Positions 7,009-62,382 of a stretch of 64,000 nt of DNA are shown in pieces. The translations under genes were made by a program, and so were the position numbers. Positions within the stretch are counted from its first letter, which is position 1; each line of letters starts with the position of its first letter. The stretch is from an uncultured Dehalococcoidales bacterium (GTDB lineage: Bacteria > Chloroflexota > Dehalococcoidia > Dehalococcoidales > UBA5627), in NCBI GenBank assembly GCA_964399425.1, contig CAYNQR010000001.1:68494-132493 (forward strand). Reading direction: 5' to 3'. Under the pieces are notes generated by a model, which did no database searches, was not told the origin of the DNA, and saw only the letters and a program-made list of their open reading frames with translations.

Positions 7009-7030
7009 TATTTGAGTTCGCAGCTATAAT
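7002..7030 (+). promoter_or_regulatory. sigma70-like promoter for the CN-hydrolase gene
   Basis: TTGCCA, 17 nt, TATAAT. The GGGAGG SD and the ATG lie ~16-29 nt downstream. Confidence 0.5.
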
Positions 7031-7058
7031 CTTTTATATATTACCGGGAGGTACTGAT

Positions 7059-7907: not shown

Positions 7908-8010
7908 TCCACCCACAGGTATGTATACTTGGATTCGGTATAAATCCTTACTATATCTGCAATTTATATTCTATATCGAATACACTGACGACTTGTAGCC
8001 TAATCCATAA

Positions 8011-8193
8011 TTAGTTGGCGGATTGTTCGACAAGTTGCGAAAGATTTTCCATCTCTCCGATAGATTGTATCCCGTTTAATAAAACCTCATATCCGCACAG
8101 AAAACAATGTTCCGAAATTATCCCTTCATCGTTTTCCAGATACAGACTCCTGCTGCCGCACTTGGGGCAGTTTTTCACCTTGTTTTTACGCAT
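8011..8193 (-). CDS. small zinc-ribbon protein, function unknown
   Basis: 60 aa with CPKC...CFLC, a 4-Cys ribbon. Confidence 0.5.
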   Translation of the reverse strand: MRKNKVKNCPKCGSRSLYLENDEGIISEHCFLCGYEVLLNGIQSIGEMENLSQLVEQSAN

Positions 8194-8349
8194 ATAACCA
8201 TTGCTCCTGCAAAAATTTATTCAGTATGTGCTGCCTGATTTTTTACAAGATGTTATTTTACTCCATGTTATAAAATTTGCCAAGTCCGGCAATAAATACG
8301 ATGCACTAAAATAATTCACTTAAAGCAAATATTGCCCTATAATATCGAT

Positions 8350-9708: not shown

Positions 9709-9816
9709 AAATATCCCGGAATAGAACTGTCATACTATCCCGGGATACGGTTTTCCGGATATAACTGAAACCAGCTAATCTAAATTGCCCTAAAAATTTA
9801 TCATCAATGGCGTATT

Positions 9817-29591: not shown

Positions 29592-29681
29592 GGAGAGGTG
29601 TCCGAGTGGTTCATGGTGCCGCTCTCGAAAAGCGGTCTTCGCGCAAGTGAAGCGTGGGTTCGAATCCCACCCTCTCCGCCA
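29592..29681 (+). tRNA. tRNA-Ser (anticodon CGA)
   Basis: 90 nt. Acceptor GGAGAGG/CCTCTCC, anticodon arm CCGCT-CTCGAAA-AGCGG, long variable arm, T loop GGTTCGAATCC, encoded CCA. Confidence 0.92.
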
Positions 29682-43376: not shown

Positions 43377-45158
43377 ATGACGAATTTCGATATAACAACG
43401 CTCGACCCCACCAAATTGCAGGACTGGCAGGTGGCTGAAGAAGCCGAAAAGTACATGAAGCCGGTTACCGCTCTGGCTGATGACTGGGGTATAAAAAAAG
43501 AAGAGCTTTTGCCGTACGGCCATTTTATAGGCAAAGTGGATTTCCCGGTTATTCTCGAGAGGCTTAAGAATAAGCCGAATGGTAAATATATCGATGTTAC
43601 CGCCATAACCCCCACCCCGCTCGGGGAGGGCAAGAGCACCACTACCATGGGGCTGGTGCAGGGATTGGCTAAGAGAAATAAAAACGTATCGGGAGCTATC
43701 CGCCAGCCCTCGGGAGGTCCTACATTCAACATTAAGGGCAGCGCCGCCGGCGGAGGTTTATCGCAATGTATTCCGCTGACGCCGTTCTCGCTGGGTCTGA
43801 CCGGAGACATCGATAATGTAACCAACGCACATAACCTGGCAATGGTAGCTCTGACCTCGCGTTTGCAGCACGAATTCAATTACGACGATGCAACTTTAGC
43901 CCAAAAGAATTTGAAACGTCTGGATATCGACCCGCGCAATGTGCAGATGAAATGGGTAATGGACTTCTGTGCCCAGTCCCTGCGCGATATCGTCATCGGC
44001 ATCGGCGACAAGATGGACGGTTTCATGATGCGTTCCGGTTTTGCCATTTCGGTCAGTTCCGAAGTTATGGCGATACTTTCCGTATTTACCAGCCTGAAAG
44101 ACCTGCGGGAACGCATGTCTAAAATAGTGGTTGCCTATGACAAACAGGGAAATCCGGTAACCACCAAAGACCTGGAAGTCGATGGGGCTATGACCGCCTG
44201 GATGGTCAGAGCCGCCAATCCCAACCTGTTACAGACACTTGAAGGGCAGCCGGTGATGGTACATGCCGGACCTTTCGCCAATATCGCAGTCGGACAATCG
44301 TCGATTGTAGCCGACCAGGTAGCGCTGAAGCTCTCCGACTACCACGTGACGGAAAGCGGATTCGGCGCCGATATCGGCTTTGAAAAGTTCTGGAATATCA
44401 AGTGTCGTTTAAGCGGGCTGGTTCCCAACTGCGCCGTAATCGTTGCCACTGTCAGGGCGCTCAAGATGCACGGAGGCGGCCCCAAGGTCGCACCGGGCAA
44501 ACCCCTTGACCCGGCTTATACGCAGGAGAATGTCGGATTGGTCGAAAAAGGCTGCGCCAACCTGATTGCACATATCGAGACGGTGAAGAAAGCCGGCATC
44601 AATCCGGTCGTCTGCATCAACAATTTTTATACCGATACGAGAGACGAAATCAATACCGTCAGAAAGATGGCCGAACAGGCAGGAGCAAGGGTAGCACTAT
44701 CACAGCACTGGTTGAAGGGCGGAGCGGGAGCGCTGGAACTGGCTGATGCCGTTATAGAAGCCTGTGAAGACAAAGTAGATTTTAAATTGCTTTACGATGA
44801 CAATACTCCTGTAAAAAAGAGAATAGAAACTATCGCCAAAGAAGTATACGGAGCCGACGGCGTCAGTTATTCACCCGAAGCAAATGCCAGGATAGAACGC
44901 TTGGAGAAAGACCCCGATATCGATAAAATGGCGACCTGCATGGTAAAAACGCACCTTAGCCTGACACACGACCCCAACCTCAAGGGGCGTCCTACCGGTT
45001 GGACTTTACCGATAAAGGACGTTCTTGTATATAACGGGGCCGGATTTATAGTTCCGGTTGCCGGCGATATAAAATTAATGCCCGGTACGGGCTCCGACCC
45101 CGCTTTCCGCAGAATAGATGTGGATGTGGATACAGGAAAAATAAAAGGACTGTTTTAA
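43377..45158 (+). CDS. fhs: formate--tetrahydrofolate ligase
   Basis: 593 aa with '[13 protein letters not shown]' and '[14 protein letters not shown]'. Confidence 0.97.
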
Positions 45159-45159
45159 G

Positions 45160-47076
45160 ATGACGGAAGAAAATACGGAAATTAAATACACCGTACACTT
45201 CGAACCGGATAATATCGATATCGTTGTCAATGAGGGAGACAACCTGATGGAAGCAGCGGTTGCCGCCGGCGTACATATCAATGCCTCATGCGGCGGCGCC
45301 GGCGTCTGCGGAACCTGCAATGTCTTTATCAAACGCGGCCGGGTCGAAAGCACGAGGACGGATAAAATCCCGGAGCACGATTTTAAAAAGGGATTCAGAC
45401 AGTCCTGTAAAAGTAAAATCATGTCAGACCTGGTTGTCGAGATTCCGGGAACATCGAAACTGGAGAAAGCGGTGCTCTCGAGGGAAGAACTGCTATCGTC
45501 ATGCGCACTGGCAAGCGGATGGAAATTCGACCCGCCGGTAAAAAAGGCATATCTGGAACTGGCGCCGCCCGCTATGGAAGATAATACCAGCGATCTTTCG
45601 CGGCTGCTTAAAGGTTTAAAACAGCAATCCGGTTTCGATAGAGTTTCCGTTGACGGCGATATACTTTACGAACTGGCTGGTATTCTGCGTAGAGATGACT
45701 GGAGCGTCACGGCTACACTGCTGGAGGATAGCGATAACAGCTTCAAGCTGATTAATATCGAATCCGGCGATACTAGAGCAAGAAATTATACGTTGGTTTT
45801 TGACATCGGCACTACCGCGGTAAGGGGACAGTTGCTGGATGCAAACCGCGGGCGCGTGCTTGCTCAGGGCATCGATTATAACCGCCAAATCAGTTACGGA
45901 GAGGACGTTATCAGCCGCATCGCCTGGGCACAAAAACAGGATGGGATGGAGAAACTGCAAAAAGCGGTTGTCGCCACCATAAACGATATGATAAAGAACC
46001 TTGCCAGGAAGGCTGATACCGATATATCGGATATAACGCATATTATACTTGCCGCAAATACCGTAATGACGCATTTGCTGCTCGGTCTCAATCCGAAATA
46101 TTTAAGATTATCCCCCTATGTGCCGACGGCAAATTACCTGCCGCTTATAAAGGCGCGTAAAACAGGTATAGAAGCAGCCGACCATGTTTACCTGTATGCT
46201 ACCCCCTGTGTCGCCAGTTATGTCGGCGGTGATATTGTTTCGGGGATATTGGGTACGGGCACCTATCAAAAAGATAAATTGACGCTTTATATCGATATCG
46301 GCACCAACGGAGAAATCGTAATCGGCAATAAAGACTGGATGGTAACCGCTGCCTGTTCCGCCGGCCCGACCTTCGAGGGGGGAGGCATCAAGCACGGTAT
46401 GATAGCGGCATCGGGAGCCATCGAAGGCTTCGATGTCGATGCCAGGACATACGAACCGTATATCACGACAATCGATGACGCCAAACCTAAGGGAATCTGC
46501 GGTTCCGGATTAATAAATATCGCCGCAAAACTGCTTGAAAAAGGGGTTATAGACCGGGGGGGTAAATTCAATAAAGGGCTGTTGAATCGCAGAATCAGGG
46601 AAGGCGACAACGGATTCGAATATGTGCTGGCTTACGGCACAGAAACACAAACTTATAAAGATATCGTTCTGACGGAGACCGATATTGCGAATCTTATCCG
46701 TTCCAAGGCTGCCATGTACGCCGGATATCAGACCCTGCTGCAAAGCGTCGATAAGAAATTCATCAATCTGGAACAGGTAATTATCGCCGGCACTTTCGGT
46801 AATCATATCGATATAGAAAATGCCGTAACCATCGGGCTTCTCCCCGATATACCCAGAAACAGATTCCTGTTCGCGGGAAACGGTTCACTGCTGGGTGCGA
46901 GGTTATCCGCATACTCCCGCGACCTGCTTAACGAAGGAAGGAAAATTGCATCTATGATGACCAATCTCGAATTATCCGAAAACAGCCTGTTTATGGACAA
47001 CTATATCGCAGCCCTGTTTTTACCGCATACCGATGGAGGAGAATTCCCCACGGTAAAATTGGAGGGTAAAAACTAA
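45160..47076 (+). CDS. reductive activator of the corrinoid Fe-S protein (RACo/AcsV-type; 2Fe-2S ferredoxin plus ASKHA ATPase)
   Basis: 638 aa. N-terminal plant-type ferredoxin motif 'SCGGAGVCGTC', followed by an ASKHA-like 'DIGTTAV...DIGTNGE' domain. Confidence 0.85.
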   Translation: MTEENTEIKYTVHFEPDNIDIVVNEGDNLMEAAVAAGVHINASCGGAGVCGTCNVFIKRGRVESTRTDKIPEHDFKKGFRQSCKSKIMSDLVVEIPGTSKLEKAVLSREELLSSCALASGWKFDPPVKKAYLELAPPAMEDNTSDLSRLLKGLKQQSGFDRVSVDGDILYELAGILRRDDWSVTATLLEDSDNSFKLINIESGDTRARNYTLVFDIGTTAVRGQLLDANRGRVLAQGIDYNRQISYGEDVISRIAWAQKQDGMEKLQKAVVATINDMIKNLARKADTDISDITHIILAANTVMTHLLLGLNPKYLRLSPYVPTANYLPLIKARKTGIEAADHVYLYATPCVASYVGGDIVSGILGTGTYQKDKLTLYIDIGTNGEIVIGNKDWMVTAACSAGPTFEGGGIKHGMIAASGAIEGFDVDARTYEPYITTIDDAKPKGICGSGLINIAAKLLEKGVIDRGGKFNKGLLNRRIREGDNGFEYVLAYGTETQTYKDIVLTETDIANLIRSKAAMYAGYQTLLQSVDKKFINLEQVIIAGTFGNHIDIENAVTIGLLPDIPRNRFLFAGNGSLLGARLSAYSRDLLNEGRKIASMMTNLELSENSLFMDNYIAALFLPHTDGGEFPTVKLEGKN

Positions 47077-47078
47077 TA

Positions 47079-47969
47079 ATGACAGCAATTATCATCGACG
47101 GTACGGCAACTGCCAAGAGCATACGCCAGGAACTTACCGAAGAAGTCGTTCGTTTAAAAGAACAATATAATATAGTTCCGGGGCTGGCTACCATACTGGT
47201 AGGCGGAGACCCGGCATCGCAATTGTATGTAGGCATGAAGGTAAAAACATGCAAGGCTATGGGGCTGTATTCCGAAAACTACGACCTGCCCGCCGAAACC
47301 ACTGAAAATGAATTGCTGGCGCTGATAGAACGCCTTAACGATGAACCTAAAATACATGGAATATTGGTACAGGTTCCCCTGCCGCCGCATATTCATGATA
47401 ATACGGTACTGGCAGCTATTAACCCCATCAAGGATGTCGACGGCTTCAACCCCGAAAGTATCGGCAACCTGATGATAGGAGAAGCCAATTACCTGCCCTG
47501 TACGCCGCTGGGGATACAGGTTCTGTTGCAGAAATACAGCATTGAAACCGAAGGCGCCGATGTGGTAATTATCGGCAGGAGCAATATTCTGGGTAAGCCG
47601 ATGGCCGGTATACTGATGCAAAGAGGCAAAGGCGCCAACGCTACCGTGACCGTCTGCCATACCAAGACCAGGGACCTGGCATCCCATACACGCAGAGCCG
47701 ATATCCTGATTGCCGCCGCCGGCAGCAAACCGCGTTTTATCACTGCCGACATGGTAAAGGAAGGCGCGGTTGTCATCGATGCCAGCACCCACCGCATCGG
47801 GGAGACGGCGGACGGAAAAGCCGTGATTTGCGGCGATGTCGATTTCGAATCTGTCAAAGAGAAAGCCGGCGCCATTACACCCGTTCCCGGCGGCGTAGGA
47901 CCTATGACCATAGCCATGCTGATGTCTAATACCATCAAGGCAGCTAAAATTATAAATATGCTTGCATAA
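47079..47969 (+). CDS. folD: bifunctional methylene-THF dehydrogenase / methenyl-THF cyclohydrolase
   Basis: 296 aa with 'YVGMKVKTC', 'GILVQVPLP' and 'PVPGGVGPMT'. Confidence 0.96.
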   Translation: MTAIIIDGTATAKSIRQELTEEVVRLKEQYNIVPGLATILVGGDPASQLYVGMKVKTCKAMGLYSENYDLPAETTENELLALIERLNDEPKIHGILVQVPLPPHIHDNTVLAAINPIKDVDGFNPESIGNLMIGEANYLPCTPLGIQVLLQKYSIETEGADVVIIGRSNILGKPMAGILMQRGKGANATVTVCHTKTRDLASHTRRADILIAAAGSKPRFITADMVKEGAVVIDASTHRIGETADGKAVICGDVDFESVKEKAGAITPVPGGVGPMTIAMLMSNTIKAAKIINMLA

Positions 47970-47982
47970 TCCGGAGGATTGA

Positions 47983-48936
47983 ATGCCTTTTAAAACCCCC
48001 GAAATACAATACAACGGTCAAATCAGGGAAATAACGCTCGGTTGCGGAGATAAAGCTGTTACCGTAGGCGGCGAAAGCGCTTATAATTTTTATACCTTCG
48101 ACGCTGAAATGCCTCACGTTCCGGTAATCGCTATGGAAGTGTACGATGTAAAACCGGAAGATTGGGCGGAAGCAGCCGTCGAACCGTTTAATGATGTAAT
48201 CGATGACCCTGTAAGCTGGGCTAAAAAATGCATCGATGAATATAAAGCGGAGATGATTTGTTTGCAGCTTTCAAGCACCGACCCCAACGGACTAGACCGC
48301 GATGCCGATGAAGCAGCCGCTGTTGTCAAAAAGGTAGTCGAAGCAATCGATGTTCCGCTAGTTGTCTGGGGAACCGCCAATCATGAGAAGGATACTGAAG
48401 TATTGAACAGGATCTGCCGCGCCTGCAAAGGTAAAAACATTGCTATCGGCCCTCTCGAAGAAGGCGATTACAAAAATATCGCCCCCACAGCCATAGAATA
48501 CGGGCATACCGTTATCGCATCCAGCCCGATCGATATCAACCTGGCAAAACAACTTAATATTCTCATGGGGAATCTGGGAGTACCCGACGATAAAATCCTG
48601 ATCGACCCGACCGTCAGCAGCATCGGCTACGGTATCGAATACGCCTATTCCGTAATAGAAAGAATCAGGATCGCGGCTTTAACGCAGAACGATGAAAAGC
48701 TGCAATATCCCATCATATGCAATATCGCCGCCGAAACCTGGAAAACAAAGGAGTCCAAAACTCCTTCATGTGATAATCCGGCTCTCGGCGATGCCAAAAA
48801 ACGCGCTATCCTGCTTGAAGCGATGTCGGCGATGACGCTGGCTGCCGCAGGCGCCGATATACTTGTTATGAGGCACCCCGAAGCTATAAAACTCGTCAGG
48901 GAAATGATAGCCGACCTTACCTCCAATCAATTATAA
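47983..48936 (+). CDS. acsD: corrinoid iron-sulfur protein small subunit
   Basis: 317 aa TIM-barrel AcsD/CdhD-like protein, placed between folD and acsB in a tight operon. Confidence 0.85.
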   Translation: MPFKTPEIQYNGQIREITLGCGDKAVTVGGESAYNFYTFDAEMPHVPVIAMEVYDVKPEDWAEAAVEPFNDVIDDPVSWAKKCIDEYKAEMICLQLSSTDPNGLDRDADEAAAVVKKVVEAIDVPLVVWGTANHEKDTEVLNRICRACKGKNIAIGPLEEGDYKNIAPTAIEYGHTVIASSPIDINLAKQLNILMGNLGVPDDKILIDPTVSSIGYGIEYAYSVIERIRIAALTQNDEKLQYPIICNIAAETWKTKESKTPSCDNPALGDAKKRAILLEAMSAMTLAAAGADILVMRHPEAIKLVREMIADLTSNQL

Positions 48937-48974: not shown

Positions 48975-50228
48975 ATGTCAGAGATGAAAGAATTTCCATT
49001 TTCATACGGACAGGAATTCGAAGGCGAGAGAATACGCCCGGATAACCTGTATATCGAATTCGGCGGCGTAAACAGCCGCATGGTCGAATTACTGACTACC
49101 GCAGACATGAGAAACATCGAGGACGGCAGTATTGAAGTCGTCGGTCAGGATATAAAAGGCCTGGACAGGAATACGGCGCACCCGCTGGCAATCGTCGTCA
49201 AGGTAGCCGGGAAAAATATGCAGCCGGATTACGAACCGGTTCTGGAAAAGCAGATTCACCGCATCCTGAATCGCATACAGGGAGTAATGCACACCGGGCA
49301 GCGTGATATGGCATGCCTCAGAATCTCCAAAGCAGCAGTGGATAAAGGCTTTACACTTAATCATCTCGCAGTAATCCTTAATAGGAAACTAATCGAAGAC
49401 TTCGGACGGATTATCGATAGAGTACAGGTAACAATTTATACCGATGAGGATAAAGTTGCAGAAATTACTGCCGAAGCCGAAAAAGTTTACCGTTTAAGAG
49501 ATGAGCGCATCGAGGGAATGACCGATGAAGAAACGGACACCTTCTATTCGTGTACAATCTGCCAATCGTTTGCTCCCTTCCACGTATGTACCGTCAGCCC
49601 CGAAAGAAGCAGCCCCTGCGGCTCATACAACTGGCTGGATTGCAGGGCGTCGTACGCCATCGACCCGACAGTCCCGAACAAACCGGTTTTGAAAGGCAAC
49701 CTGAAAGATTTACGACTGGGACAATGGCAGGGTATAAATGATTTTATTGATAAAGCCTCACAGGGAAAAACCGGATATTATAATCTTTACAGCATTATGG
49801 ATAAGCCGATGCCGACCTGCGAATGGATAGAATGCATTTCAGTTGTGCTGCCCCTGTGCAACGGGGTTATGATTGTCGATAGAGATTATACGGGGATGAC
49901 TCCCTGCGGCATGGATTTCAAAACCATAATCGATAATATCAAGGGAGAATTGAATACACCCGGTTTTATGGGACACAGTAAATACAATATTACCCAGCGC
50001 AAGTTTTTAAACGCCGAGGGAAGCATTCAAAGAATCGTCTGGATGCCCCGACAGCTTAAAACGGAAATTACGAAAAGATTTAACATCAGAGCGAAAGAAT
50101 CAGGAATCCCGGATTTGATGAAAAGGATTGCAGATGAATCTGTCGGCGCTACCGAAGAGCAGATTTTGCCCTTTTTAAAAGAGGCAAAACATCCGGCACT
50201 TTCTATGAAACCCCTAATCCAGTTATAA
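48975..50228 (+). CDS. acsB: acetyl-CoA synthase beta-like protein, short CdhC-type form with an altered Ni-binding motif
   Basis: 417 aa. The N-terminus 'FEGERIRPDNLYIEFGG' resembles the CdhC/ACS middle domain. The [4Fe-4S] quartet C193-x2-C196-x8-C205-x9-C215 is present, but C282-E283-W284 sits where Cys-Gly-Cys is expected. Confidence 0.85.
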   Translation: MSEMKEFPFSYGQEFEGERIRPDNLYIEFGGVNSRMVELLTTADMRNIEDGSIEVVGQDIKGLDRNTAHPLAIVVKVAGKNMQPDYEPVLEKQIHRILNRIQGVMHTGQRDMACLRISKAAVDKGFTLNHLAVILNRKLIEDFGRIIDRVQVTIYTDEDKVAEITAEAEKVYRLRDERIEGMTDEETDTFYSCTICQSFAPFHVCTVSPERSSPCGSYNWLDCRASYAIDPTVPNKPVLKGNLKDLRLGQWQGINDFIDKASQGKTGYYNLYSIMDKPMPTCEWIECISVVLPLCNGVMIVDRDYTGMTPCGMDFKTIIDNIKGELNTPGFMGHSKYNITQRKFLNAEGSIQRIVWMPRQLKTEITKRFNIRAKESGIPDLMKRIADESVGATEEQILPFLKEAKHPALSMKPLIQL

Positions 50229-50249: not shown

Positions 50250-51596
50250 ATGGCGATTACAGGCATAGAAATATTTAAATTGTTACCGAAAACCAATTGC
50301 GGTGAATGCGGCGTTCCTACCTGCCTGGCCTTTGCCATGAGCCTGGCTGCCGGCAAAGCGGAACTTTCAAAGTGCCCGTATCTTTCTGATGAAGCCCGTA
50401 ATAAGCTTGAAGAAGCCTCGACCCCTCCCATCAGGCCGGTAACTATAGGCAAGGGCGAATTCGCTAAAATAATCGGCGGCGAAACAGTGATGTTCCGCCA
50501 CGAAAAGCGGTTCGAAAACGCCCCGGCAATCGCCCTGCTTCTATGCGACGATATGACCGAAGCCGAAATAGACGGGCGGATAGAGAGATTTAATACTCTT
50601 GTTTACGAAAGAGTCGGGCAAACCCTGCGCAGCGAAATAATTGCCTTAAAATGCCAATCGGATGATGCGGATAAGTACAAAGCCCTGATAAATAGAGTTA
50701 TGCAGAAATGCAAAGCTAATATTATGTTAATCAACGAAAACCCCGATATAATTGAGGCAGGGTTATCGGTATGCTCCTATTTAAGACCGCTGATTCACGC
50801 GGCAACTAAAGAGAATTTTAATCGGATTGCCGCTCTTGTCAAAAATTATTCCTGTCCGGTAGCCGTTAAAGGTGAATCCATCGATGATATTATCGAATTG
50901 ACAACCCGGCTCGAACAATCGGGCATCAAAGATATTGTGATCGATTGCGGAGCAGACGATATAAAAAGCGCGCTGCAAGACCAGGTGGCAATCAGGCGTG
51001 CCGCGCTGAATCAAAAGATGCGCCCGCTCGGATACCCAACAATAGTTATGGTTAACGAAATGACCGGCGACCCGCTGAAAGAAGCAATGATTGCAGCTAC
51101 GTTCGTTGCCAAATATGCCGGTATCATCGTGCTCTCCGACTTTACCGGCGAGACACTCTTTCCCCTGCTTGTCTTGAGAATGAACATCTTTTCCGACCCG
51201 CAGAGGCCGCTGGCAACAGCCGAGAATATTTACGAAATCGGCGGCCCCGGTGAGAACTCGCCGGTTCTTTTAACCTGCAATTTTTCCCTGACCTACTTTA
51301 TCATCTCCGGTGAAATCGAAAGCAGCCGCGTCCCCAGCTACCTGCTGATAAAGGATACCGAAGGGCTTTCCGTTATGACGGCCTGGGCAGCCGGCAAGTT
51401 CGGCGCCGATATCATCGCATCATTCGTGAAAAAATGCGGCATTACGGAAAAAGTAAAACACCGCAAGCTGATTATACCCGGTTATATTTCAATCGAAAGC
51501 GGCGCGCTGGAAGACGAGCTTCCCGACTGGGAAATCGTTGTCGGGCCGCGGGAAGGCGCGCACATACCGGCTTATCTAAAAACATGGAAAGCATAA
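50250..51596 (+). CDS. acsC: corrinoid iron-sulfur protein large subunit
   Basis: 448 aa with the N-terminal 4Fe-4S motif 'CGECGVPTCLAFAM...KCP', followed by TIM-barrel and B12-binding regions. Confidence 0.9.
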   Translation: MAITGIEIFKLLPKTNCGECGVPTCLAFAMSLAAGKAELSKCPYLSDEARNKLEEASTPPIRPVTIGKGEFAKIIGGETVMFRHEKRFENAPAIALLLCDDMTEAEIDGRIERFNTLVYERVGQTLRSEIIALKCQSDDADKYKALINRVMQKCKANIMLINENPDIIEAGLSVCSYLRPLIHAATKENFNRIAALVKNYSCPVAVKGESIDDIIELTTRLEQSGIKDIVIDCGADDIKSALQDQVAIRRAALNQKMRPLGYPTIVMVNEMTGDPLKEAMIAATFVAKYAGIIVLSDFTGETLFPLLVLRMNIFSDPQRPLATAENIYEIGGPGENSPVLLTCNFSLTYFIISGEIESSRVPSYLLIKDTEGLSVMTAWAAGKFGADIIASFVKKCGITEKVKHRKLIIPGYISIESGALEDELPDWEIVVGPREGAHIPAYLKTWKA

Positions 51597-51606
51597 GGGG
51601 TTCTTT

Positions 51607-52485
51607 ATGATACTTATCGGCGAAAATATCAATATAATGTCCAAAAAGATCGGCGCGGCAATGCGCGAACGCCTGCCAGACCCTGTCCGAGAGCTTGCCA
51701 GAGCCGAAACCGCAGCCGGAATGGATTATCTTGACCTCAACATCGGCCCCGCCCGCAAGGACGGTGATGAACTGATGAAATGGCTGGTGGAAACCGTACA
51801 GGAAGTAATCGATAAACCGCTGTCGCTGGATACCACCAACCCGCTGGCAACCGAAGCCGGACTGAAAATCTGTAAAAAACGTGCGCTTATCAATTCGGTA
51901 TCATTGCAACCGGAACGTCTGGAAAAAGTGTTGCCGATGGCAAAAGAATATAATGCCGAGATTATCGGACTGTTGTGGGGAACAGACGGTATGCCTCGCG
52001 ATGCCAACGAAAGATGTATGCTGGCGGTAGATATCGTTTATAAAGCCAACGAAATCGGAATTCCGAATGAAGATATCTGGATAGACCCCATCGTTACTCC
52101 TGTCAGCGTCGATATCAACCAGGTTAAAGCATGTATAGAATTTATGAGCATGCTGGGCGATATCGCTCCCGGATGCAAATCGGTGGTCGGGCTTTCGAAT
52201 GTTTCCAATGGAACGCCTGCCAATCTCAGGCCGTATTTGAACAGGGCATATCTGGCAATGCTGATGAAGTACAGCATCTATTCCGCTATCGTGGATGCTT
52301 TCGACGCTGAATTGATTCGATTGGCAAGGGGCGAAATGCCGGAGATCCTCGAACTGGTGCATAAGATGATGGACGGCTACAGTCCCGATATCTCGACTCT
52401 TTCCCCTAAAGAGAAAGAATATGCCAAATCGGTAAAGGTTTTAAGCGGCGATTCTCTATACTCCCATTCGTGGCTGGAGATATAA
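51607..52485 (+). CDS. acsE: methyl-THF:corrinoid Fe-S protein methyltransferase (pterin-binding)
   Basis: 292 aa, collinear with Moorella MeTr: 'LIGENIN', 'LDLNIGPA', 'LSLDTTN', 'INSVS', 'IDPIV', 'VVGLSNVSNG'. Confidence 0.9.
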   Translation: MILIGENINIMSKKIGAAMRERLPDPVRELARAETAAGMDYLDLNIGPARKDGDELMKWLVETVQEVIDKPLSLDTTNPLATEAGLKICKKRALINSVSLQPERLEKVLPMAKEYNAEIIGLLWGTDGMPRDANERCMLAVDIVYKANEIGIPNEDIWIDPIVTPVSVDINQVKACIEFMSMLGDIAPGCKSVVGLSNVSNGTPANLRPYLNRAYLAMLMKYSIYSAIVDAFDAELIRLARGEMPEILELVHKMMDGYSPDISTLSPKEKEYAKSVKVLSGDSLYSHSWLEI

Positions 52486-53064: not shown

Positions 53065-53376
53065 ATGAGCGATATTTTAGACGAAGCATACGGTATTGTG
53101 CAGTGCAAGGAATGCCCCTGGTATAAAACCTGCCTGGTGCCGATGAAGTTTACCACTGAGGATATTCGCAGGCAGATGGAGAATACTCCCGGGTTCGATG
53201 CTTCGGCAAAGGACAACCCGGAAGTAAACAGCCTGATTTCAAGTATGGCTTATTCGGCGCAGCAATCGATGGTCGAGGGCTGCCCGATTTTTATCGAACG
53301 CCTTCGCCAGAGCCCGAAACTGGCTCAGCGTATCAAGCAAATAATGATGAACTGGAGCAGTGAAGAAGATAAGTAG
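53065..53376 (+). CDS. small Cys-containing hypothetical protein co-oriented with trxA
   Basis: 103 aa with 'CKECPWYKTC' and 'GCPIF'. It starts 34 nt after trxA. Confidence 0.6.
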   Translation: MSDILDEAYGIVQCKECPWYKTCLVPMKFTTEDIRRQMENTPGFDASAKDNPEVNSLISSMAYSAQQSMVEGCPIFIERLRQSPKLAQRIKQIMMNWSSEEDK

Positions 53377-53379
53377 CCG

Positions 53380-54762
53380 TCACTGCTCCGGTTGTAATTC
53401 CTTTATCATGTACCCGTTTTCCAGTTTGTAGCCTTCGCTGCGATAGTACTCCCTTGCCCCCACCCCGCTGAGTATAGCCATTCGACTGATACCGAACTCA
53501 TCCGATGCAATGCGTTCCGCTTCCGCCAGTAAAGACTTCCCCATCCCTTTATGCTGTACGGCTTCGATATCTTTACTGCCTAGCATTACCTCAGGGCCAT
53601 AAACATGTAATTCTCTTATTAAGGACGTATCGCTACCGAACCCGGGATTAAGAGAGGAATTCTTTTGAATCCGCAGCCTCAACAAACCGAAGAGCGTCAT
53701 GTATTGGTCTTCGAAGGAAAGAAATATCTCGCGCCCGCCCGAAGCTTCATAATCCATCCTGTTCAATACAGGCGTCCCCACTGGAAGCCCTGTATTAACC
53801 TTGTGCCCGTATTCACGGCAGCGAACACACTGGCAGCTTATACCCTTCTGTTCCATTATTTGCTTTAACGGTTCACGCAGGGAATCTTTAAGCCCGGCTA
53901 CTATAAACTTTGCCGGGATATCGCGCAGTACGCGGGATATCCTGACATATTTAGGCACCAGCCCCTTGATATCAGCCATCAGGTTTATCATAGTGTCTTT
54001 ATCATACGGATGATAGGCGCCAGCCCGGTACCATTCATAGAGCACAGTCCCCTCGACAACCATAGTAGGATACAGCTTGAGACCATCGGGCTTGAAAGAT
54101 TCGCTTTCAAACATCATCCTCGAAAGCTCCAGGTCATGTTCCGGTGTCGACCCGGGCAGCCCGGGCATCCAGTGATAATGCACCTTTAATCCGGTTTCTT
54201 TAAGCATGCCGGTGGCTCTGATAACGTTTTCGACGCAATGGCCGCGCCTGACCGTTTCGTAAATTTTGTCATCCAGCGTTTGAACTCCGAGTTCCACCCT
54301 GGTGGTTCCGAATTCAATCATCCTGCGAATATCTTCTTCCTTGCACCAATCCGGTCTTGTTTCGATACACAAACCGACACAGCGATGCCTGGCGCTTTCA
54401 TTGATTTTCTGCGCCTCTTTCAGGTTTCCGGAAATCGTTCCGTTCAACGCATCATAGCATCCCTTAATAAATTTATACTGGTATTCGGAAGGATATGATA
54501 AAAAGGTACCCCCCATAATTATCATTTCTATTTTATCGGTGGGATGTCCCATTTCAGAAAGGATACGCAGCCTTAATTCTACCTGTTTAGCGGCATCGTA
54601 ATCGCAGCTTTTCGCTCTTAAAACCGCCGGCGACTCGGGTGTATAGCTTTGAGGAGTGGCGACATAGGTCGGACAATAGATGCATTTACCGGGGCACCCC
54701 TGGGGTGAAGTCATCACGGCAACCGGCGTTACGCCCGATATCGTCCTGGATACTTTTTTCAT
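53380..54762 (-). CDS. elp3: Elp3-like radical SAM / GNAT tRNA-modification enzyme
   Basis: 460 aa. Radical-SAM motif 'CPGKCIYCP', an Elp3 central region, and a C-terminal GNAT domain 'VQHKGMGKSLLAEAERIA'. Confidence 0.9.
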   Translation of the reverse strand: MKKVSRTISGVTPVAVMTSPQGCPGKCIYCPTYVATPQSYTPESPAVLRAKSCDYDAAKQVELRLRILSEMGHPTDKIEMIIMGGTFLSYPSEYQYKFIKGCYDALNGTISGNLKEAQKINESARHRCVGLCIETRPDWCKEEDIRRMIEFGTTRVELGVQTLDDKIYETVRRGHCVENVIRATGMLKETGLKVHYHWMPGLPGSTPEHDLELSRMMFESESFKPDGLKLYPTMVVEGTVLYEWYRAGAYHPYDKDTMINLMADIKGLVPKYVRISRVLRDIPAKFIVAGLKDSLREPLKQIMEQKGISCQCVRCREYGHKVNTGLPVGTPVLNRMDYEASGGREIFLSFEDQYMTLFGLLRLRIQKNSSLNPGFGSDTSLIRELHVYGPEVMLGSKDIEAVQHKGMGKSLLAEAERIASDEFGISRMAILSGVGAREYYRSEGYKLENGYMIKELQPEQ

Positions 54763-57280: not shown

Positions 57281-58312
57281 TCAGAATAACGGCTGCTGCG
57301 GCGGTTTTTCCTTGTTGTTGCAGGGGATTCCGAGATGCTGGTAAGCCAGCGGAGTTGCCAGTCTGCCGCGCGGCGTCCTTTCCAGGAAACCCAGTTGCAT
57401 CAGGTAAGGCTCATAAACGTCCATGATGGTATCCGCTTCCTCGCTGATGGATGCGGCAATGGTTTCGATGCCGACCGGCCCTCCGTTGAATTTCTTTATA
57501 ATGGTATGTAAAACCTTATTATCGACATCATCCAGCCCCATATGGTCGACTTCCAGTTTCGAGAGCGCCTCTACCGCCATCGCAGCGGTAGCCGTGCCGT
57601 CGCCTTTCACCTGCGCGTAGTCCCTGACCCGTTTCAACAGGCGGTTAGCCACTCTCGGCGTTCCGCGCGAACGGCAGGCGATTTCATGCAGCCCGTCCGC
57701 TTCGGCTCTAACCCCGAGGATTTTTGCCGAGCGTTTCAGGATTTCTTCTATATCTTCAATATTGTAAAAATCGAGGCGGTAAACAGCCCCGAACCTGTCT
57801 CTCAAGGGGGAGCTTAGTTGTGCGTAGCGCGTGGTCGCCCCGATTAAAGTGAAAGCCGGCAGATTCAAACGCAGACTCTTGGCGCCGGGGCCTTTGCCTA
57901 TCATGATATCCAGTGCGCGGTCTTCCATTGCCGGATAGAGTATTTCTTCAACCACCCTGCTGAGACGATGTATTTCATCGATAAACAGGATATCCTGGCT
58001 GTGAATATTGGTTAAGATAGCCGCCAGGTCGCCGGTTCGTTCTATGGCCGGTCCCGAGGTTATCCTGAGGTTGACCCCCATCTCGATAGCAATTATATTC
58101 GCCAGTGTGGTTTTGCCAAGTCCAGGAGGCCCGTAAAGCAATATGTGGTCGAGAGCTTCGCCTCTGCCTTTGGCGGCTTCGATGGCAATGTTCAGATTTT
58201 CCCTGACCCTGGATTGCCCGATAAAATCGCTGAAATATCTCGGCCTGAGAGTGCTATCCAGGGGAGAATCTTCATCGTTGTTTTTACCGGATATTATGCG
58301 TTCTATTTCAAT
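57281..58312 (-). CDS. ruvB: Holliday junction branch-migration helicase RuvB (non-canonical start: ATT at 58312 or ATA at 58306)
   Basis: Walker A 'GPPGLGKTT', with 'DEIHRL' and '[11 protein letters not shown]'. The conserved N-terminal 57 codons ('IEIERIIS...[12 protein letters not shown]...ALDHI') lie upstream of the first TTG and contain no ATG, GTG or TTG. An in-frame TAA lies at 58325-58327. Confidence 0.88.
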
Positions 58313-58334
58313 GCTCCCTGCCCGTTATTGGGTT

Positions 58335-58462: not shown

Positions 58463-59590
58463 TTATCCCCTGGATTTGCTTTTCCTTACGATTACCTTGC
58501 CCTTGCTGCCGCCGATGATATTCTCGACCTCTTTGCAATTGGTGCAATAGCGCATAACGGTATCGTACTTAATGACACCCTTTTTATACAGTTCTGTAAG
58601 CGCTTCATCCATGGAAATCATGCCGTTTTCACGGTTCGTTACGATTACATTGTGCAGTTGATAGATCTTGCCCTCCCGCACCAGGTTCTTTACCGCATCG
58701 TTTGCCAGCATTATCTCGACTGCGGCAATTCTGCCCGTTCCGCTGGCGCGCGGCACCAGTGTCTGGCAGATAACCGCCACCAGCAGAGATGCCAGCCTAG
58801 TCTGCGCCAGATTGCGCTCGTGCAGGGGGAATAAGTCGATTATGCGTTCCAGCGCTTGCGGTGCGCTGGGGGCATGGCTGGTACTGAGTACCAGGTGTCC
58901 GGTCTCGGCGATGTTTAAAACCGCCGCCGCCGTTTCCATATCGCGCATTTCACCTACTAAAATAACATCGGGGTCCTGCCTTAAAACATGTCTCAAAGCA
59001 TGCCCGAAAGAATAGGTATCGCTCCCCAGTTCGCGTTGGGTGATAACGCTCTTGTCGGAATGATGGACGTATTCAATGGGGTCTTCAATAGTTAAAATAT
59101 GACGACTGTCGGTTTTGTTCAGATGGTTTATCATCGCCGCCAGTGTCGTCGTCTTTCCGCTGCCGGTAGGGCCTGTAACGATAATCAGTCCTCTTGGTTG
59201 GGTAATCAACTCTTCGAATACTGCGGGTAATTCCAGCTGTTTAATAGTCGGCACTTCGGCAGGCAGCAGGCGTATGGCAAGGCTAATCGCACCGCGTTGA
59301 ATCGAAGCATTGCAACGGAACTGTGCGACTTCGGGTATAGCATAACTGAAATCCAGTTCCCGGTTTTCCTCAAAATGCGCTCTTTCCCTCGGCGTAGTAA
59401 TTTGCTCGAAAGCAACCCTGATATCCTGCGCCGTAAGCGGTTGCGAGCCGTTAACACTCTTCAGAACTCCATCGATACGAAACATCGGAGGGGTATCCAG
59501 CACCATATGCAGGTCGGACGCCCTCTCATCCTTTGCACTTTTCAGCAGGTCTATAATATCCACAATCCCCTCTTCCTTACCATGTGGCAT
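58463..59590 (-). CDS. pilT: type IV pilus retraction ATPase PilT
   Basis: Walker A 'GPTGSGKTTT', 'ILTIEDPIE' and 'ILVGEMRD'. The start is taken at the ATG (MPHGKEE); the track's TTG start at 59626 would overlap the upstream gene by 50 nt. Confidence 0.9.
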   Translation of the reverse strand: MPHGKEEGIVDIIDLLKSAKDERASDLHMVLDTPPMFRIDGVLKSVNGSQPLTAQDIRVAFEQITTPRERAHFEENRELDFSYAIPEVAQFRCNASIQRGAISLAIRLLPAEVPTIKQLELPAVFEELITQPRGLIIVTGPTGSGKTTTLAAMINHLNKTDSRHILTIEDPIEYVHHSDKSVITQRELGSDTYSFGHALRHVLRQDPDVILVGEMRDMETAAAVLNIAETGHLVLSTSHAPSAPQALERIIDLFPLHERNLAQTRLASLLVAVICQTLVPRASGTGRIAAVEIMLANDAVKNLVREGKIYQLHNVIVTNRENGMISMDEALTELYKKGVIKYDTVMRYCTNCKEVENIIGGSKGKVIVRKSKSRG

Positions 59591-61118
59591 AAATATAAAA
59601 TTCGAATGTACTGGCGCTATCAACAACAGCGTTTACAATTACCGAGTTGAATTGCCCGCTTTCTCTCAAGGCACGGGCATAATCATAAATATTGTCCTCG
59701 CTTGTTCCTGTGCCGTAGATACCAATCTGGTCGGCGATGTAAACGACATTCAATACGTCCACTTTACCGCCGGACAATGTGGTTATCATGCTTAAGTCGA
59801 TGTTGGTTTTCGCCAATGCATCGCTTAAATTATCGAGCAATTGCTGCATTACGACAGCCTGTTCATGTTCGTCAATCGGCAGCATATTCGTAGCTATTTG
59901 TCTATCTATAGCTCTCTGCATTAACAAGACTTCATTTTGTTTTTGTTTATTTGCATCTTCGATAAGCGAAAGCTGAGATTCAAGGTTATCCGCATCCTTG
60001 TTAAGATTGGTAATAGCGCTATTCAATGCCGTATTCTGCGCCTGCAACTGCGACAGTTCCGTTCTCATCTTTTGGGTTTCATCGATTGTATTTTGCAGTA
60101 ACAGCCATCCGTAATAAATTCCTGCCAAAGCCACAACTATCAACACCGGCACCAGTATATTAACCAGCTTCGGAGCCGGAGGTTGATGCGCCTTTGGCAG
60201 AGCTTCTATATCGATAACAGAATAATAAATGTCCTTCCCCTTCGGCAACTGTCCTTTAAGAAACATCCCTATGTTTACCATATACTGGCTGGCCGGAAAT
60301 TCAGCGTCCATTGTAAACGGCACCGCCAGGGTAAACACCGCATTCCCAAGTCCGCCCAGATTTTCCTTCAAGTCCTCTTCTTTATTCGCCAGGTCTCCGC
60401 ATACCATAATCGGCGTCGAATCGTCCAGCGCCTTATCGGGATAGCTTGTTTTATAATAAGATATCGTTCTGTTGATTTCCTCGCCTATAATCGGTAATTT
60501 TTGCCCCATTTCATCGGAATCGATTGGTAAAGAAAGGCTGCGGAGGACTTTGGGCAAACCATCGGAAAGCACTATTATATCCAGATACGTCAACCATGAA
60601 TTCACAATTACAGCGCTCGGCTCGTTGACGCAGCGCGCCAGAGCCAGCGGGGCCAGGTCGAGCGACTGCGGTTTCAATCCTGCCGCTTTAACGGCATTAA
60701 TCAAGGTATCGGTAGCATTGCGCGGCTGCGCAGCCAGAAAATACTGGGTCTCGCCTTTATCGCCGGCAATGTGTTGATATGAGAGGTATACCTGTTCGAC
60801 AGAAATAGGTAGCACGCGCCGTGCTTCATTTATTATCGCCTCATCCAACATGGAACGCGGTATATCGGCGGGAAAAGTGATAAAACGAAAAACCGAATTC
60901 AAACCGCTCAAACCGACTGTTACCTTCTTGTCATTCACTTCGGTGGCTGCCATAATATTTTTGATTTCTTTAGCTATCTGTTTTTCATCCAGTATGACGC
61001 CGTCGCTGACCAGTTTCTGTTCGAGAACCAGGCTTGCCCACTTGAGCACCTTTTTACCATCGCTAACTACAAGCTTGATTTCCGCATCTTCTATATATAA
61101 AGTAACTTTGCGTGCCAT
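59577..61118 (-). CDS. pilM: PilM (actin-like) fused to a PilN-like TM, coiled-coil and C-terminal domain
   Basis: 513 aa. The N-terminal ~320 aa are PilM-like. These are followed by the TM helix 'LVNILVPVLIVVALAGIYYGWLLL', a coiled coil, and a PilN/PilO-like C-terminal domain. Confidence 0.78.
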   Translation of the reverse strand: MARKVTLYIEDAEIKLVVSDGKKVLKWASLVLEQKLVSDGVILDEKQIAKEIKNIMAATEVNDKKVTVGLSGLNSVFRFITFPADIPRSMLDEAIINEARRVLPISVEQVYLSYQHIAGDKGETQYFLAAQPRNATDTLINAVKAAGLKPQSLDLAPLALARCVNEPSAVIVNSWLTYLDIIVLSDGLPKVLRSLSLPIDSDEMGQKLPIIGEEINRTISYYKTSYPDKALDDSTPIMVCGDLANKEEDLKENLGGLGNAVFTLAVPFTMDAEFPASQYMVNIGMFLKGQLPKGKDIYYSVIDIEALPKAHQPPAPKLVNILVPVLIVVALAGIYYGWLLLQNTIDETQKMRTELSQLQAQNTALNSAITNLNKDADNLESQLSLIEDANKQKQNEVLLMQRAIDRQIATNMLPIDEHEQAVVMQQLLDNLSDALAKTNIDLSMITTLSGGKVDVLNVVYIADQIGIYGTGTSEDNIYDYARALRESGQFNSVIVNAVVDSASTFEFYIYATW

Positions 61119-62350
61119 TATTCTTCCTCCTGCGAGGTATTATAAGTATAGACGGCAATTCTAACAGTACCGCTGGAAGCGGTTTCCATTTCTATTATCA
61201 GTTCATTTGCCGCTGCCTGTGCGCTCAATAAAACCAGCGGCGTAACATGCTCGACCATTCTTTTCTCTATACATTCCGATATATATGTCTTCAATAAACC
61301 GGCAATATCCGAAGTCAGAGCCCCGGATAATTCACTGCTTAACAAGGCAGCAATATCTTCTCCCACTATCGTTTCCAGATTGTCGCCGTTTTCCAGGGCT
61401 GCCGCAATTCTTTCCGATAATTCCTTTATAACTTTATCTGCCAACCAATCGTTGATATGTTGTTTTATCAATGCCGCCAGGTCGAATGCTAAACTGTCAT
61501 CGTAATCTTCCGTCAGGGTATGCTCCAGCGGTTCCTCAAATACTTCCTGCATCAACTCAGCCAGTATTTGCTTGATTGCAGTTGCCATTTCCTGAACAGT
61601 TTGCGTGCTAATGTAATTACCGGTGACATCGGCTATTCCGAGGACAATAAAATTACATATCTGGTCGAGTGATAAATCGGCAATGCCTTCCAGTACCATT
61701 TCATCGAGAACTATATCGAACACAAGTTCTTTCTCGTCAGCTGTAAGCATTTTGGGCAATGAAAGGCTTATATTATCGAAAAGAGCGGTATTGAATGAGG
61801 CATCGGATTGTATTTTTATCAGATAATCGAGAATACCGGCTTTTTTACCGGAAATCGCGAGGTCTAAAATAACTATATCGTAATTAACTCCCTCTATATT
61901 AATGGTAGCGCCGATGGAATAGATGATTTGAGAAAGCGTAATCCCGGACGAATCCGCCAGGGCAAATAATAACTCGCCGTACTCAATGCTTTCAACAGCG
62001 CTTAGGAATTTAGCCTCTGTAGCATTAAGCAGGGCAATTGCTTCCTGTATCGCCTGTTCCCGTTCAGCTTCCAACTGCAGGAGTTCGTCTTGCAGCAGAT
62101 TCAGTTCCTGTTGCAGTTCTGCCGTTTTTTCTCCGGCCGCTGCGATATCCGCTTCGAGCTTCTGTATCTTCTGCTCCAGGTTATTTTTGCTCATTGTGCG
62201 CACCAGCGCCATCTGCTTAGCGGTATTTATCTGCTGCTGGAGGGTTTCCTGTTCATTCTTATTGCTGTTATAAGGGATATACAGCGCTACGGCTGCTGCA
62301 ATTAAAACCACCACCCCGATTACTGCCCACCGCTTACCGCTCATTTTCAT
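61118..62350 (-). CDS. bitopic coiled-coil protein, PilO-like N-terminus with a long acidic helical C-domain
   Basis: 410 aa. TM helix 'WAVIGVVVLIAAAVALYI', then a heptad-rich segment 'LEQKIQKLEADIAAAGEKTAELQQELNLLQDELLQLEAE'. Its stop overlaps the pilM ATG (TAATG). Confidence 0.55.
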   Translation of the reverse strand: MKMSGKRWAVIGVVVLIAAAVALYIPYNSNKNEQETLQQQINTAKQMALVRTMSKNNLEQKIQKLEADIAAAGEKTAELQQELNLLQDELLQLEAEREQAIQEAIALLNATEAKFLSAVESIEYGELLFALADSSGITLSQIIYSIGATINIEGVNYDIVILDLAISGKKAGILDYLIKIQSDASFNTALFDNISLSLPKMLTADEKELVFDIVLDEMVLEGIADLSLDQICNFIVLGIADVTGNYISTQTVQEMATAIKQILAELMQEVFEEPLEHTLTEDYDDSLAFDLAALIKQHINDWLADKVIKELSERIAAALENGDNLETIVGEDIAALLSSELSGALTSDIAGLLKTYISECIEKRMVEHVTPLVLLSAQAAANELIIEMETASSGTVRIAVYTYNTSQEEE

Positions 62351-62382
62351 ATATTACATGCCCCTTAAAATAAAGATTCGGC

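Follow-up and report, generated by a model that had tools for sequence, protein, structure and literature searches.

Acetyl-CoA synthase (ACS; AcsB in bacteria, EC 2.3.1.169) carries nickel next to a [4Fe-4S] cubane in its A-cluster. In Moorella thermoacetica numbering, Cys509, Cys595 and Cys597 are the ligands of the proximal ion Ni(p), and the distal ion Ni(d) is bound by the thiolates of Cys595 and Cys597 together with the backbone amides of Gly596 and Cys597, residues 595-597 being a Cys-Gly-Cys tripeptide (C-G-C). The archaeal counterpart CdhC, the beta subunit of the acetyl-CoA decarbonylase/synthase complex (ACDS), keeps Cys-Gly-Cys and works with a carbon monoxide dehydrogenase (CODH; CdhA). 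In Dehalococcoides mccartyi, which has an incomplete Wood-Ljungdahl pathway (Zhuang et al. 2014), a CODH-free acs operon encoding AcsB, AcsC, AcsD, Fhs and FolD has been proposed, as summarised in PMC7005905, to supply methyl groups for methionine, and all Dehalococcoidia genomes known in 2020 lacked metF (PMC7005905). Here we describe a related operon from the same order, found in a window of 64 kb (64,000 nucleotides; GCA_964399425.1, contig CAYNQR010000001.1, positions 68,494 to 132,493) of an uncultured Dehalococcoidales bacterium, in which an AcsB-like protein has Cys-Glu-Trp (C-E-W) in place of the nickel-binding tripeptide. To judge from its sequence, this protein is a lineage-specific derivative of bacterial ACS that has been maintained by selection and has kept the cubane, while the Ni-Ni part can no longer be built.

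By fold and ancestry, the AcsB-like protein is a member of the ACS superfamily. PF03598 (middle domain) covers residues 7-161 with 194 bits and PF19436 (C-terminal domain) residues 172-415 with 340 bits, and the match to the 705-position bacterial AcsB model NF040764 spans positions 296-705 (616 bits, with a cutoff of 800), so that the protein lacks the N-terminal third of a typical AcsB. The protein is also under the cutoff of NF007078 (615 bits versus 809), but just over that of the cdhC model TIGR00316 (363.3 bits versus 355.95) and over that of NF003379 (400 versus 372). In a phmmer search of PDB chains, residues 6-416 matched the Carboxydothermus, Moorella and Clostridium enzymes with E = 1e-124 over about 410 aligned residues, gap-free up to residue 378. 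Its two-domain architecture, without the bacterial N-terminal domain, is that of archaeal CdhC; unlike CdhC, however, it is a truncated bacterial AcsB that falls phylogenetically beside Dehalococcoidales sequences.

The gap-free alignment fixes the columns of the A-cluster. With an offset of +313 to 1OAO, C193, C196, C205 and C215 correspond to Moorella Cys506, Cys509, Cys518 and Cys528, C282 to Cys595, E283 to Gly596 and W284 to Cys597; with an offset of +316 to 1RU3, F199 and E283 correspond to Phe515 and Gly599 of Carboxydothermus hydrogenoformans, the residues named in PMC12289521. Around the cubane, 'yscticqsfapfhvctvspersspcg' is aligned with 'yscllcqsfapthvcivspervglcg' of solved ACS, and around the tripeptide 'pmptCEWiecisvvlplcng' with 'pmtsCGCfeaimaylpelng'. 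The ten cysteines are at positions 114, 193, 196, 205, 215, 223, 282, 287, 295 and 311 (the C193 codon begins at 49551 and the C287 codon ends at 49835), and no C-G-C occurs anywhere in the 417 residues. A shifted register with Cys-Gly-Cys elsewhere was therefore rejected, since the tripeptide is also bracketed by a conserved P-M-x-T and a conserved E-C-I-S...L-P-x-C-N-G, which leave no other register. What an earlier note on this DNA had read from the letters, namely a cubane quartet with exact Moorella spacing, C282 in the column of Cys595, Glu-Trp at 49818-49826 in a protein free of C-G-C and with a further Cys at 287, and codons for E283 (GAA) and W284 (TGG) that are each a single base from GGA and from TGC/TGT, respectively, was borne out by the alignment, by the common +313 offset and by the codons themselves. 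The replacements G596E and C597W appear to do away with the partners of two of the three Ni(p) thiolate ligands and with the whole N2S2 site of Ni(d), and a canonical A-cluster would be unable to form.

Several observations show that the motif is real and under selection. Assemblies of two different runs in the Sequence Read Archive (SRA), made by Logan, are identical to the window over 4554 bases (SRR10178537) and 3551 bases (SRR35900205), which speaks against a sequencing error at the motif. Among the best 120 database homologues, all 17 cluster representatives (90% level) that are 70-79% identical to the protein have about 417 residues and read C-E-W, and one at 63% identity reads S-E-W; the remaining homologues, at most 63% identical, comprise 98 with C-G-C and two short exceptions with C-G-Y and C-G-F. 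Likewise, of 533 relatives in GTDB species representatives, the best 80 comprise six at 71-79% identity that have C-E-W, all from uncultured Dehalococcoidales metagenome-assembled genomes (MAGs), and 74 that have C-G-C. When cluster members are added, E283 and W284 are found in 40 of 40 clade sequences; the S-E-W orthologue (P0017, locus L083) is syntenic and has Ser (TCG) in place of C282, which would leave it with just the equivalent of bridging Cys509. The four cubane cysteines are invariant across a 15-sequence alignment of the clade. Glu283 is encoded by GAA or GAG, and neighbouring codons differ synonymously while the amino acids are fixed. The ratio of nonsynonymous to synonymous change (dN/dS, Nei-Gojobori) is 0.10-0.21 with a median of 0.12, values that are rough because synonymous sites are near saturation, and indicates purifying selection. 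Length is fixed at 415-420 residues, none of the 40 sequences has a frameshift or stop codon, and 167 of 265 locally conserved canonical positions are kept. Sequencing or assembly error was accordingly rejected on the strength of the identical DNA and the clade-wide motif, as was a pseudogene on the dN/dS, the synonymous codon variation and the constancy of the motif. The view that this is neither a decaying gene nor an error has thus stood up, as has that of a change not private to one strain, since every relative retrieved at 70-79% identity has C-E-W and no close relative with the canonical motif was retrieved.

Loss of the nickel ligands was accompanied by loss of genes. In canonical operons the order is fhs-(RACo)-cooC-like-folD-acsD-CODH-acsB-acsC-acsE, and in the nearest C-G-C relatives (L009, L011, L013, L015, L026, L029 and L032) acsD is separated from the homologous part of acsB by about 3 kb, as compared with about 40 nt here. 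In L026, this interval encodes a 655-residue CODH (PF03063; TIGR01702 656 bits, cutoff 478) and the first ~317 codons of a 734-residue AcsB with a CODH_A_N domain (NF040764 1074 bits). The sister operons L026, L013, L029 and L032 have not only a CODH and a long AcsB of this kind but also, just upstream of folD, a gene for a 253-residue MinD/CbiA-type P-loop ATPase, for which the top hit among PDB chains is CooC, the nickel-insertion protein (3KJE, E = 3e-17); in the window, the reductive activator of corrinoid protein (RACo) gene and folD are only 2 nt apart. Searches with tblastn, covering the 64-kb window and 10 kb on either side of orthologous loci, found the L026 CODH, the CooC-like protein and the AcsB N-terminal domain in the canonical loci, but none of the three in the window, in the C-E-W loci L003-L008, in the S-E-W loci L083/L084 or in the C-G-Y and C-G-F loci. 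In addition to its nickel ligands, the lineage has thus lost the partner that produces CO, the docking and CO-channelling domain and a likely nickel chaperone. The operon partners had been thought to look intact, which holds for AcsC, AcsD, AcsE, RACo, Fhs and FolD but not for these three elements, which are gone in comparison with relatives.

What remains is a compact operon (Table 1), in the order fhs-RACo-folD-acsD-acsB-like-acsC-acsE with spacers of 1-38 nt, in which the acsB-like gene always lies between acsD and acsC (38 and 21 nt away in the window). The order and the flanking genes, clpP, tig and aspS on one side and trx, an open reading frame (ORF) of 103 codons and elp3 on the other, are shared by L003-L008 and L083/L084. 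Encoded together are therefore the corrinoid iron-sulfur protein (CoFeSP, formed of AcsC and AcsD), the pterin-binding AcsE and RACo. The RACo product scores 649 bits with the AcsV model NF040756, under its cutoff of 800, and fhs has a dN/dS of about 0.04 within the clade. AcsE, which is slightly under the cutoff of NF005719, is nevertheless the normal AcsE of this lineage, since the orthologue from a canonical CODH operon scores alike (232 bits). In a Pfam scan of 48 window ORFs, no match to MetF or core-MetE was found, and outside the operon there were only housekeeping genes.

Table 1. Position of the acs operon genes and of the key sites of the AcsB-like protein in the window
Feature	Position	Strand	Details and support
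AcsB-like protein	48975..50228	+	417 aa; ACS middle and C-terminal domains only; without CODH-docking N-terminal domain and Cys-Gly-Cys
Pocket residues K92 (C. autoethanogenum Arg383), H95 (His386), G108 (Gly399), C114 (Trp405)	49248..49316	+	motif spacing, middle domain
Cubane ligand quartet C193-x2-C196-x8-C205-x9-C215 (Moorella Cys506/509/518/528), including F199 (Phe512)	49551..49619	+	gap-free alignment to solved ACS
TGC GAA TGG, Cys282-Glu283-Trp284, replacing Cys595-Gly596-Cys597	49818..49826	+	alignment, codons
fhs, formate--tetrahydrofolate ligase, first gene of the operon	43377..45158	+	PF01268 770 bits; NF010032 1130 bits, cutoff 938
RACo/AcsV-type reductive activator of corrinoid protein, 2Fe-2S and ASKHA ATPase	45160..47076	+	PF14574, PF17651, PF17650, PF00111
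folD, methylene-tetrahydrofolate dehydrogenase/cyclohydrolase	47079..47969	+	PF02882, PF00763
acsD, corrinoid iron-sulfur protein small subunit	47983..48936	+	PF03599; NF003377 556 bits, cutoff 527
acsC, corrinoid iron-sulfur protein large subunit	50250..51596	+	PF04060 and PF03599; NF003195 613 bits, cutoff 306
acsE-type methyl-tetrahydrofolate:corrinoid methyltransferase, pterin-binding	51607..52485	+	PF00809; NF005719 240 bits, cutoff 259

Two of the flanking genes deserve a brief comment. The Elp3-type radical SAM/GNAT tRNA-modification enzyme (53380-54762, minus strand; TIGR01211 588 bits), which is syntenic with the operon across the clade, matches the crystal structure of D. mccartyi Elp3 (5L7J) with 701 bits; the locus reached by synteny through Elp3 has no acs operon. 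The 103-residue ORF that follows the thioredoxin gene (53065-53376, plus strand) has no Pfam match and is 89-92% conserved in the clade and 65-69% conserved beside canonical operons (L011 and L013).

Clues to the history of the protein came from a neighbour-joining tree of 407 shared columns, in which C-E-W and S-E-W sequences form one group with 100% bootstrap support, on a long stem and beside canonical Dehalococcoidales, while the C-G-Y and C-G-F forms are nested within the canonical group (92% support). In canonical operons, the AcsB-homologous part evolves more slowly than most of its neighbours, with ratios of its nonsynonymous divergence (dN) to that of AcsC, AcsD, AcsE and FolD of 0.73, 0.86, 0.65 and 1.15, respectively; in the C-E-W/S-E-W clade it evolves faster than all of them (1.49, 1.44, 2.5 and 3.25). 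Overall constraint on the protein has thus been relaxed, but unevenly. The most conserved window of 21 residues in the clade, 269-289 (YNLYSIMDKPMPTCEWIECIS), surrounds the former nickel site with a column identity of 0.96, and is followed by 90-110 (0.96), 315-335 (0.94) and 198-218 (0.93). These four segments also carry clade-specific changes at positions where 210 local C-G-C sequences show at least 90% conservation (in Moorella numbering, R405K, H409R, Y413R and W427C; T525S, G526S and L527P; T593P, G596E, C597W, C598V and A602S; K627D, G633D, T634N, G636K and G638E). Such a pattern, in which replacements became fixed and have not changed since, would be expected of a remodelled site still in use rather than of neutral decay.

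The acetyl-CoA pocket appears to be altered as well. In the acetyl-CoA-bound CODH/ACS of Clostridium autoethanogenum, Trp405 stacks on the adenine, Gly399 forms a bond with the carbonyl of the acetyl group and Phe491 is a mobile phenylalanine, while Arg383 and His386 adjoin Ni(p), with proposed roles in stabilising the acetyl group and deprotonating CoA (bioRxiv 10.1101/2024.08.05.606187). Mapped by the spacing R-x2-H-x12-G-x5-W rather than by structural superposition, these residues fall at positions 92, 95, 108 and 114 of the AcsB-like protein, with Phe491 at 199. Arg and Trp are 100% conserved at the equivalents of positions 92 and 114 in the local canonical set of 210 sequences, whereas in the clade position 92 is Lys in 40 of 40 sequences and position 114 is Cys in 34, Ser in five and His in one; His95, Gly108 and Phe199 are kept. 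The adenine-stacking Trp thus seems to have been lost and the catalytic Arg to have been conservatively swapped for Lys. A similar trend is seen in the family at large, among representatives of clusters at 50% identity, where Trp is kept in 26 of 33 C-G-C but in seven of 41 non-C-G-C sequences (Fisher p = 1e-7) and His in 29 and 17 of them, respectively (p = 4e-5); the direction of the effect is clear, although these p values overstate the evidence because cluster representatives are phylogenetically non-independent.

The same loss of the nickel motif recurs in other lineages. Among 1.84 billion cluster representatives scanned with HMMER, 862 were recognised as members of the family, and the best 150 of these (P0160-P0309) were aligned to the query. 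The tripeptide is covered in 103 of the aligned sequences, with 61 C-G-C, nine C-S-C, three C-R-C and 30 others that include S-A-C, S-S-L, C-S-Y, S-G-Y, C-G-R, C-G-D, C-Y-R, T-L-S and S-S-W; about 40% of the motif-covering representatives in this set are therefore not Cys-Gly-Cys, although the Cys-Ser-Cys and Cys-Arg-Cys forms may still bind nickel. The cubane quartet is intact in nearly all non-canonical representatives, which comprise short (404-430 aa) and full-length (690-730 aa) forms. Besides the clade described here, four more sequence-distinct short AcsB forms were found in CODH-free FolD-AcsD-AcsB-AcsC-AcsE operons, all of them without Cys-Gly-Cys: C-G-Y (L085), C-G-F (L086), S-A-C (L094) and S-D-C (L095-L097). 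Their N-terminal junctions differ in length and sequence, suggesting independent truncations. The S-D-C tripeptide is conserved between two sequences that are 84% identical, and a metagenome scan with this form (P0186) gave three loci only; the short S-A-C form (P0163) was a singleton in the homology search. In the C-G-Y operon, AcsC and AcsE are fused into one protein of 742 residues with FeS, CdhD and Pterin_bind domains (L085 10502-12730). Three apparent short proteins with C-G-C (P0031/L091, P0089/L092 and P0020/L093) were considered as intermediates and rejected, since they are fragments of full-length acsB adjoining CODH, broken by frameshifts or gene-calling splits; such entries can mimic truncated forms in surveys. 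In this sample, then, every AcsB that is genuinely without CODH and N-terminal domain is also without an intact Cys-Gly-Cys.

Two of the loci visited in this survey have further features. In the Omnitrophota MAG GCA_028700175.1 (L090 8001-10154), a full-length ACS homologue of 717 residues has S-G-Y for C-G-C; its gene follows genes for FTCD_C, FolD, MTHFR and Pyr_redox_2 (pyridine-nucleotide oxidoreductase) proteins, and there is no CODH or CoFeSP within 8 kb, so that an ACS homologue without the nickel motif is here found in another setting. In L095, GNAT and thioredoxin genes come after the operon of the S-D-C short AcsB (2275-3546), and the opposite strand (7006-10278) then carries genes for the lower ligand of cobamides, cobU, a His_Phos_1 gene, cobS and cobT. 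This is an order that we take to resemble that of D. mccartyi.

How the AcsB-like protein relates to the systems introduced above can now be stated more precisely. It resembles bacterial AcsB of M. thermoacetica, C. hydrogenoformans and C. autoethanogenum in its middle and C-terminal domains, in its cubane cysteines and in the position of its gene among acsC, acsD and acsE with RACo, fhs and folD. It differs from them in the absence of the N-terminal CODH-docking/tunnel domain and of CODH and CooC-like genes, in Gly596 to Glu and Cys597 to Trp, which leave neither nickel site as in known structures, and in the apparent loss of the pocket Trp and change of Arg383 to Lys. Lacking both the nickel ligands and the association with CODH, it ought not to be classed as a CO-methylating acetyl-CoA synthase. 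The likeness to D. mccartyi, a member of the same order with a CODH-free acs operon, is also partial. The window operon has an acsE orthologue, unlike D. mccartyi, which PMC7005905 reports as lacking acsE, and the model set out there needs a working A-cluster that cleaves acetyl-CoA, whereas the nickel ligands are missing here. A third comparison, by analogy only, is with four-component corrinoid methyltransferase systems such as O-demethylases, with their corrinoid protein, a second methyltransferase (MT-II) to which AcsE is similar and a RACo-type activator; the AcsB-like protein would take the place of the first methyltransferase (MT-I), but has no sequence relation to known MT-I enzymes, the likeness being one of operon logic. 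A full-text literature search found no description of cubane-retaining ACS homologues without Cys-Gly-Cys, but most subscription journals were outside its reach and a prior description is possible.

In the scenario that we favour, a canonical operon would have lost the CODH gene, the first ~317 codons of acsB, which encode the CODH-docking and CO-tunnel domain, and the gene for the CooC-type ATPase. The AcsB-like protein would have stopped making or cleaving acetyl-CoA by nickel chemistry and would have been kept as an Fe-S protein that docks on CoFeSP. It would thereby work together with AcsE, CoFeSP and RACo in a CODH-free methyl-transfer module that takes its input from Fhs and FolD and could shuttle methyl groups between methyl-tetrahydrofolate and the corrinoid for biosynthesis. 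The absence of nickel, the loss of acetyl-CoA chemistry, the continued docking on CoFeSP and the physiological role are all things that we infer. A neofunctionalised or differently metallated relative of ACS acting with the corrinoid protein, as put forward in the earlier note, is thus the favoured kind of explanation, in view of conserved segments that carry clade substitutions and of a gene that never leaves its place between acsD and acsC. That the protein is specifically a nickel-free Fe-S docking partner of CoFeSP which has given up acetyl-CoA chemistry has, in our estimate, about an even chance of being right. A number of points weigh against it. The genes that were kept (for the AcsB-like protein, CoFeSP, AcsE and RACo) are exactly those required to move the methyl group of acetyl-CoA to tetrahydrofolate, and if the AcsB-like protein were non-catalytic, no second methyl partner of CoFeSP would be known in the window. 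If the reported absence of metF (PMC7005905) holds here, acetyl-CoA cleavage would be the only known source of methyl groups. The equivalents of His386, Gly399 and Phe512 and all four cubane cysteines are kept, and Cys196, Cys282 and Glu283 would in principle offer ligands for a single metal ion. Beyond the 64 kb that are visible, the genome could hold CODH, cooC, metF or a second acsB. Finally, an AlphaFold2 model made from the 15-sequence clade alignment had a pLDDT under 50 over the entire C-terminal domain and was not used.

In a rival reading, the protein would still be an acetyl-CoA decarbonylase of the D. mccartyi type, yielding CoA, CO and a methyl group for CoFeSP and ultimately methionine at an unconventional metal site, e.g. 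one nickel or iron ion on Cys196, Cys282 and Glu283. The operon context fits the CODH-free model in PMC7005905, AcsCD, AcsE and RACo are not only kept but strongly constrained (dN/dS 0.06-0.09), the cubane cysteines and the equivalents of Phe512, His386 and Gly399 persist, and conservation along the protein peaks at what used to be the active site. However, cleavage of the C-C bond needs low-valent Ni(p) on three thiolates, two of them from the Ni(d) metalloligand, and this arrangement is gone, the Ser-Glu-Trp orthologue being left with bridging Cys196 only. The CooC-like gene is missing from the operon, the adenine-stacking Trp seems to be lost and Arg383 to have become Lys, and relative to operon neighbours nonsynonymous change is two to four times faster than in canonical operons. 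A surviving decarbonylase is therefore unlikely, and is given even this much weight because the retained gene set suits methyl transfer from acetyl-CoA and because Dehalococcoidia have been reported to lack metF. Slightly more doubtful is a new, MT-I-like activity that would transfer methyl groups between a substrate other than an acetyl compound and CoFeSP at the remodelled pocket. In its favour, the operon supplies the other three components (the corrinoid protein AcsCD, AcsE as MT-II and RACo as activator), its architecture recurs in several lineages, and the clade-specific pocket substitutions were fixed and then conserved; but there is no known candidate substrate, an ACS fold with only the cubane is not known to carry out chemistry of this sort, and constraint is relaxed rather than tightened over the protein as a whole. 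The tripeptides, moreover, vary among lineages that share the architecture (C-E-W, C-G-Y, S-A-C and S-D-C), which argues against one shared new active site.

The same heterogeneity, together with the long stem branch of the clade, the highest dN/dS in the operon and a nonsynonymous rate of 1.4-3.3 times that of neighbours (0.65-1.15 in canonical operons), would suit a functionless remnant in slow decay after the loss of CODH, persisting inside an essential operon. Yet neutral evolution would give a dN/dS far above the observed 0.10-0.21, frameshifts and stops are absent from 40 sequences of fixed length despite nearly saturated synonymous sites, 167 of 265 locally conserved canonical positions are kept and the former nickel site is 96% conserved, all of which make a remnant very improbable. 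As for Cys-Glu-Trp being an error of sequencing or assembly or a mutation private to one strain, the fact that each substitution is one nucleotide from the canonical codon is outweighed by two SRA assemblies identical to the window and by the presence of the motif in 17 clusters and six GTDB species representatives at 70-79% identity, and its probability is negligible. A broader proposal, which we regard as somewhat unlikely, is that cubane-only homologues of ACS constitute an unrecognised functional class, of which the AcsB-like protein would be an active member exchanging methyl groups with CoFeSP without a Ni-Ni centre. This could occur either by acetyl-CoA cleavage at a new metal site or as the methyl-donor-specific part of a new corrinoid methyltransferase system, and would, if true, make the protein the supplier of methyl groups in CODH-free, possibly metF-free Dehalococcoidales.

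Some other features of the window are recorded here for completeness. The ruvB gene (57281-58318, minus strand) was listed with an ORF of just 286 codons and a TTG start, and the orthologue in L083 encodes 346 residues and aligns in one frame to base 58318 with 88% identity; where that orthologue starts, the window shows no ATG, GTG or TTG. Next to it lies a type IV pilus or secretion-like cluster (58463-63549, minus strand) that encodes a T2SSE ATPase, a PilM_2-domain protein of 513 residues, a 410-residue ORF without Pfam match and a DUF7305 protein. An ORF of 617 residues that starts with GTG and matches no Pfam family (27113-28966, minus strand) is overlapped by opposite-strand ORFs of 373, 191 and 158 residues. 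Lastly, tRNA-Ser(CGA) (29592-29681) overlaps the listed GTG start of a DNA-alkylation-repair gene (PF08713; 29647-30432), whose true start is probably further downstream than listed.

Returning to the favoured reading, the AcsB-like protein probably does a different job with the corrinoid protein and has been mislabelled by automatic annotation. Members of the clade are named ACS beta subunit or hypothetical protein by the NCBI Prokaryotic Genome Annotation Pipeline (PGAP), and in the clusters of P0011, P0017 and P0186 the NCBI annotation is inconsistent. Because such proteins are named automatically as CO-methylating acetyl-CoA synthase, reconstructions from Dehalococcoidia and other MAGs may wrongly credit their hosts with synthesis or cleavage of acetyl-CoA. 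The consequences would extend to the methyl economy of these bacteria, since the accepted source of methyl groups in CODH-free, metF-free Dehalococcoidia is cleavage of acetyl-CoA by AcsB, which presumes a working A-cluster. With the C-E-W lineage and four other short-AcsB lineages lacking the nickel ligands, either this explanation would not be general or the chemistry would be different. More broadly, the clade illustrates one route by which a complex metalloenzyme is dismantled, in which partner, docking domain, maturation factor and metal ligands disappear and the Fe-S scaffold survives in remodelled form.

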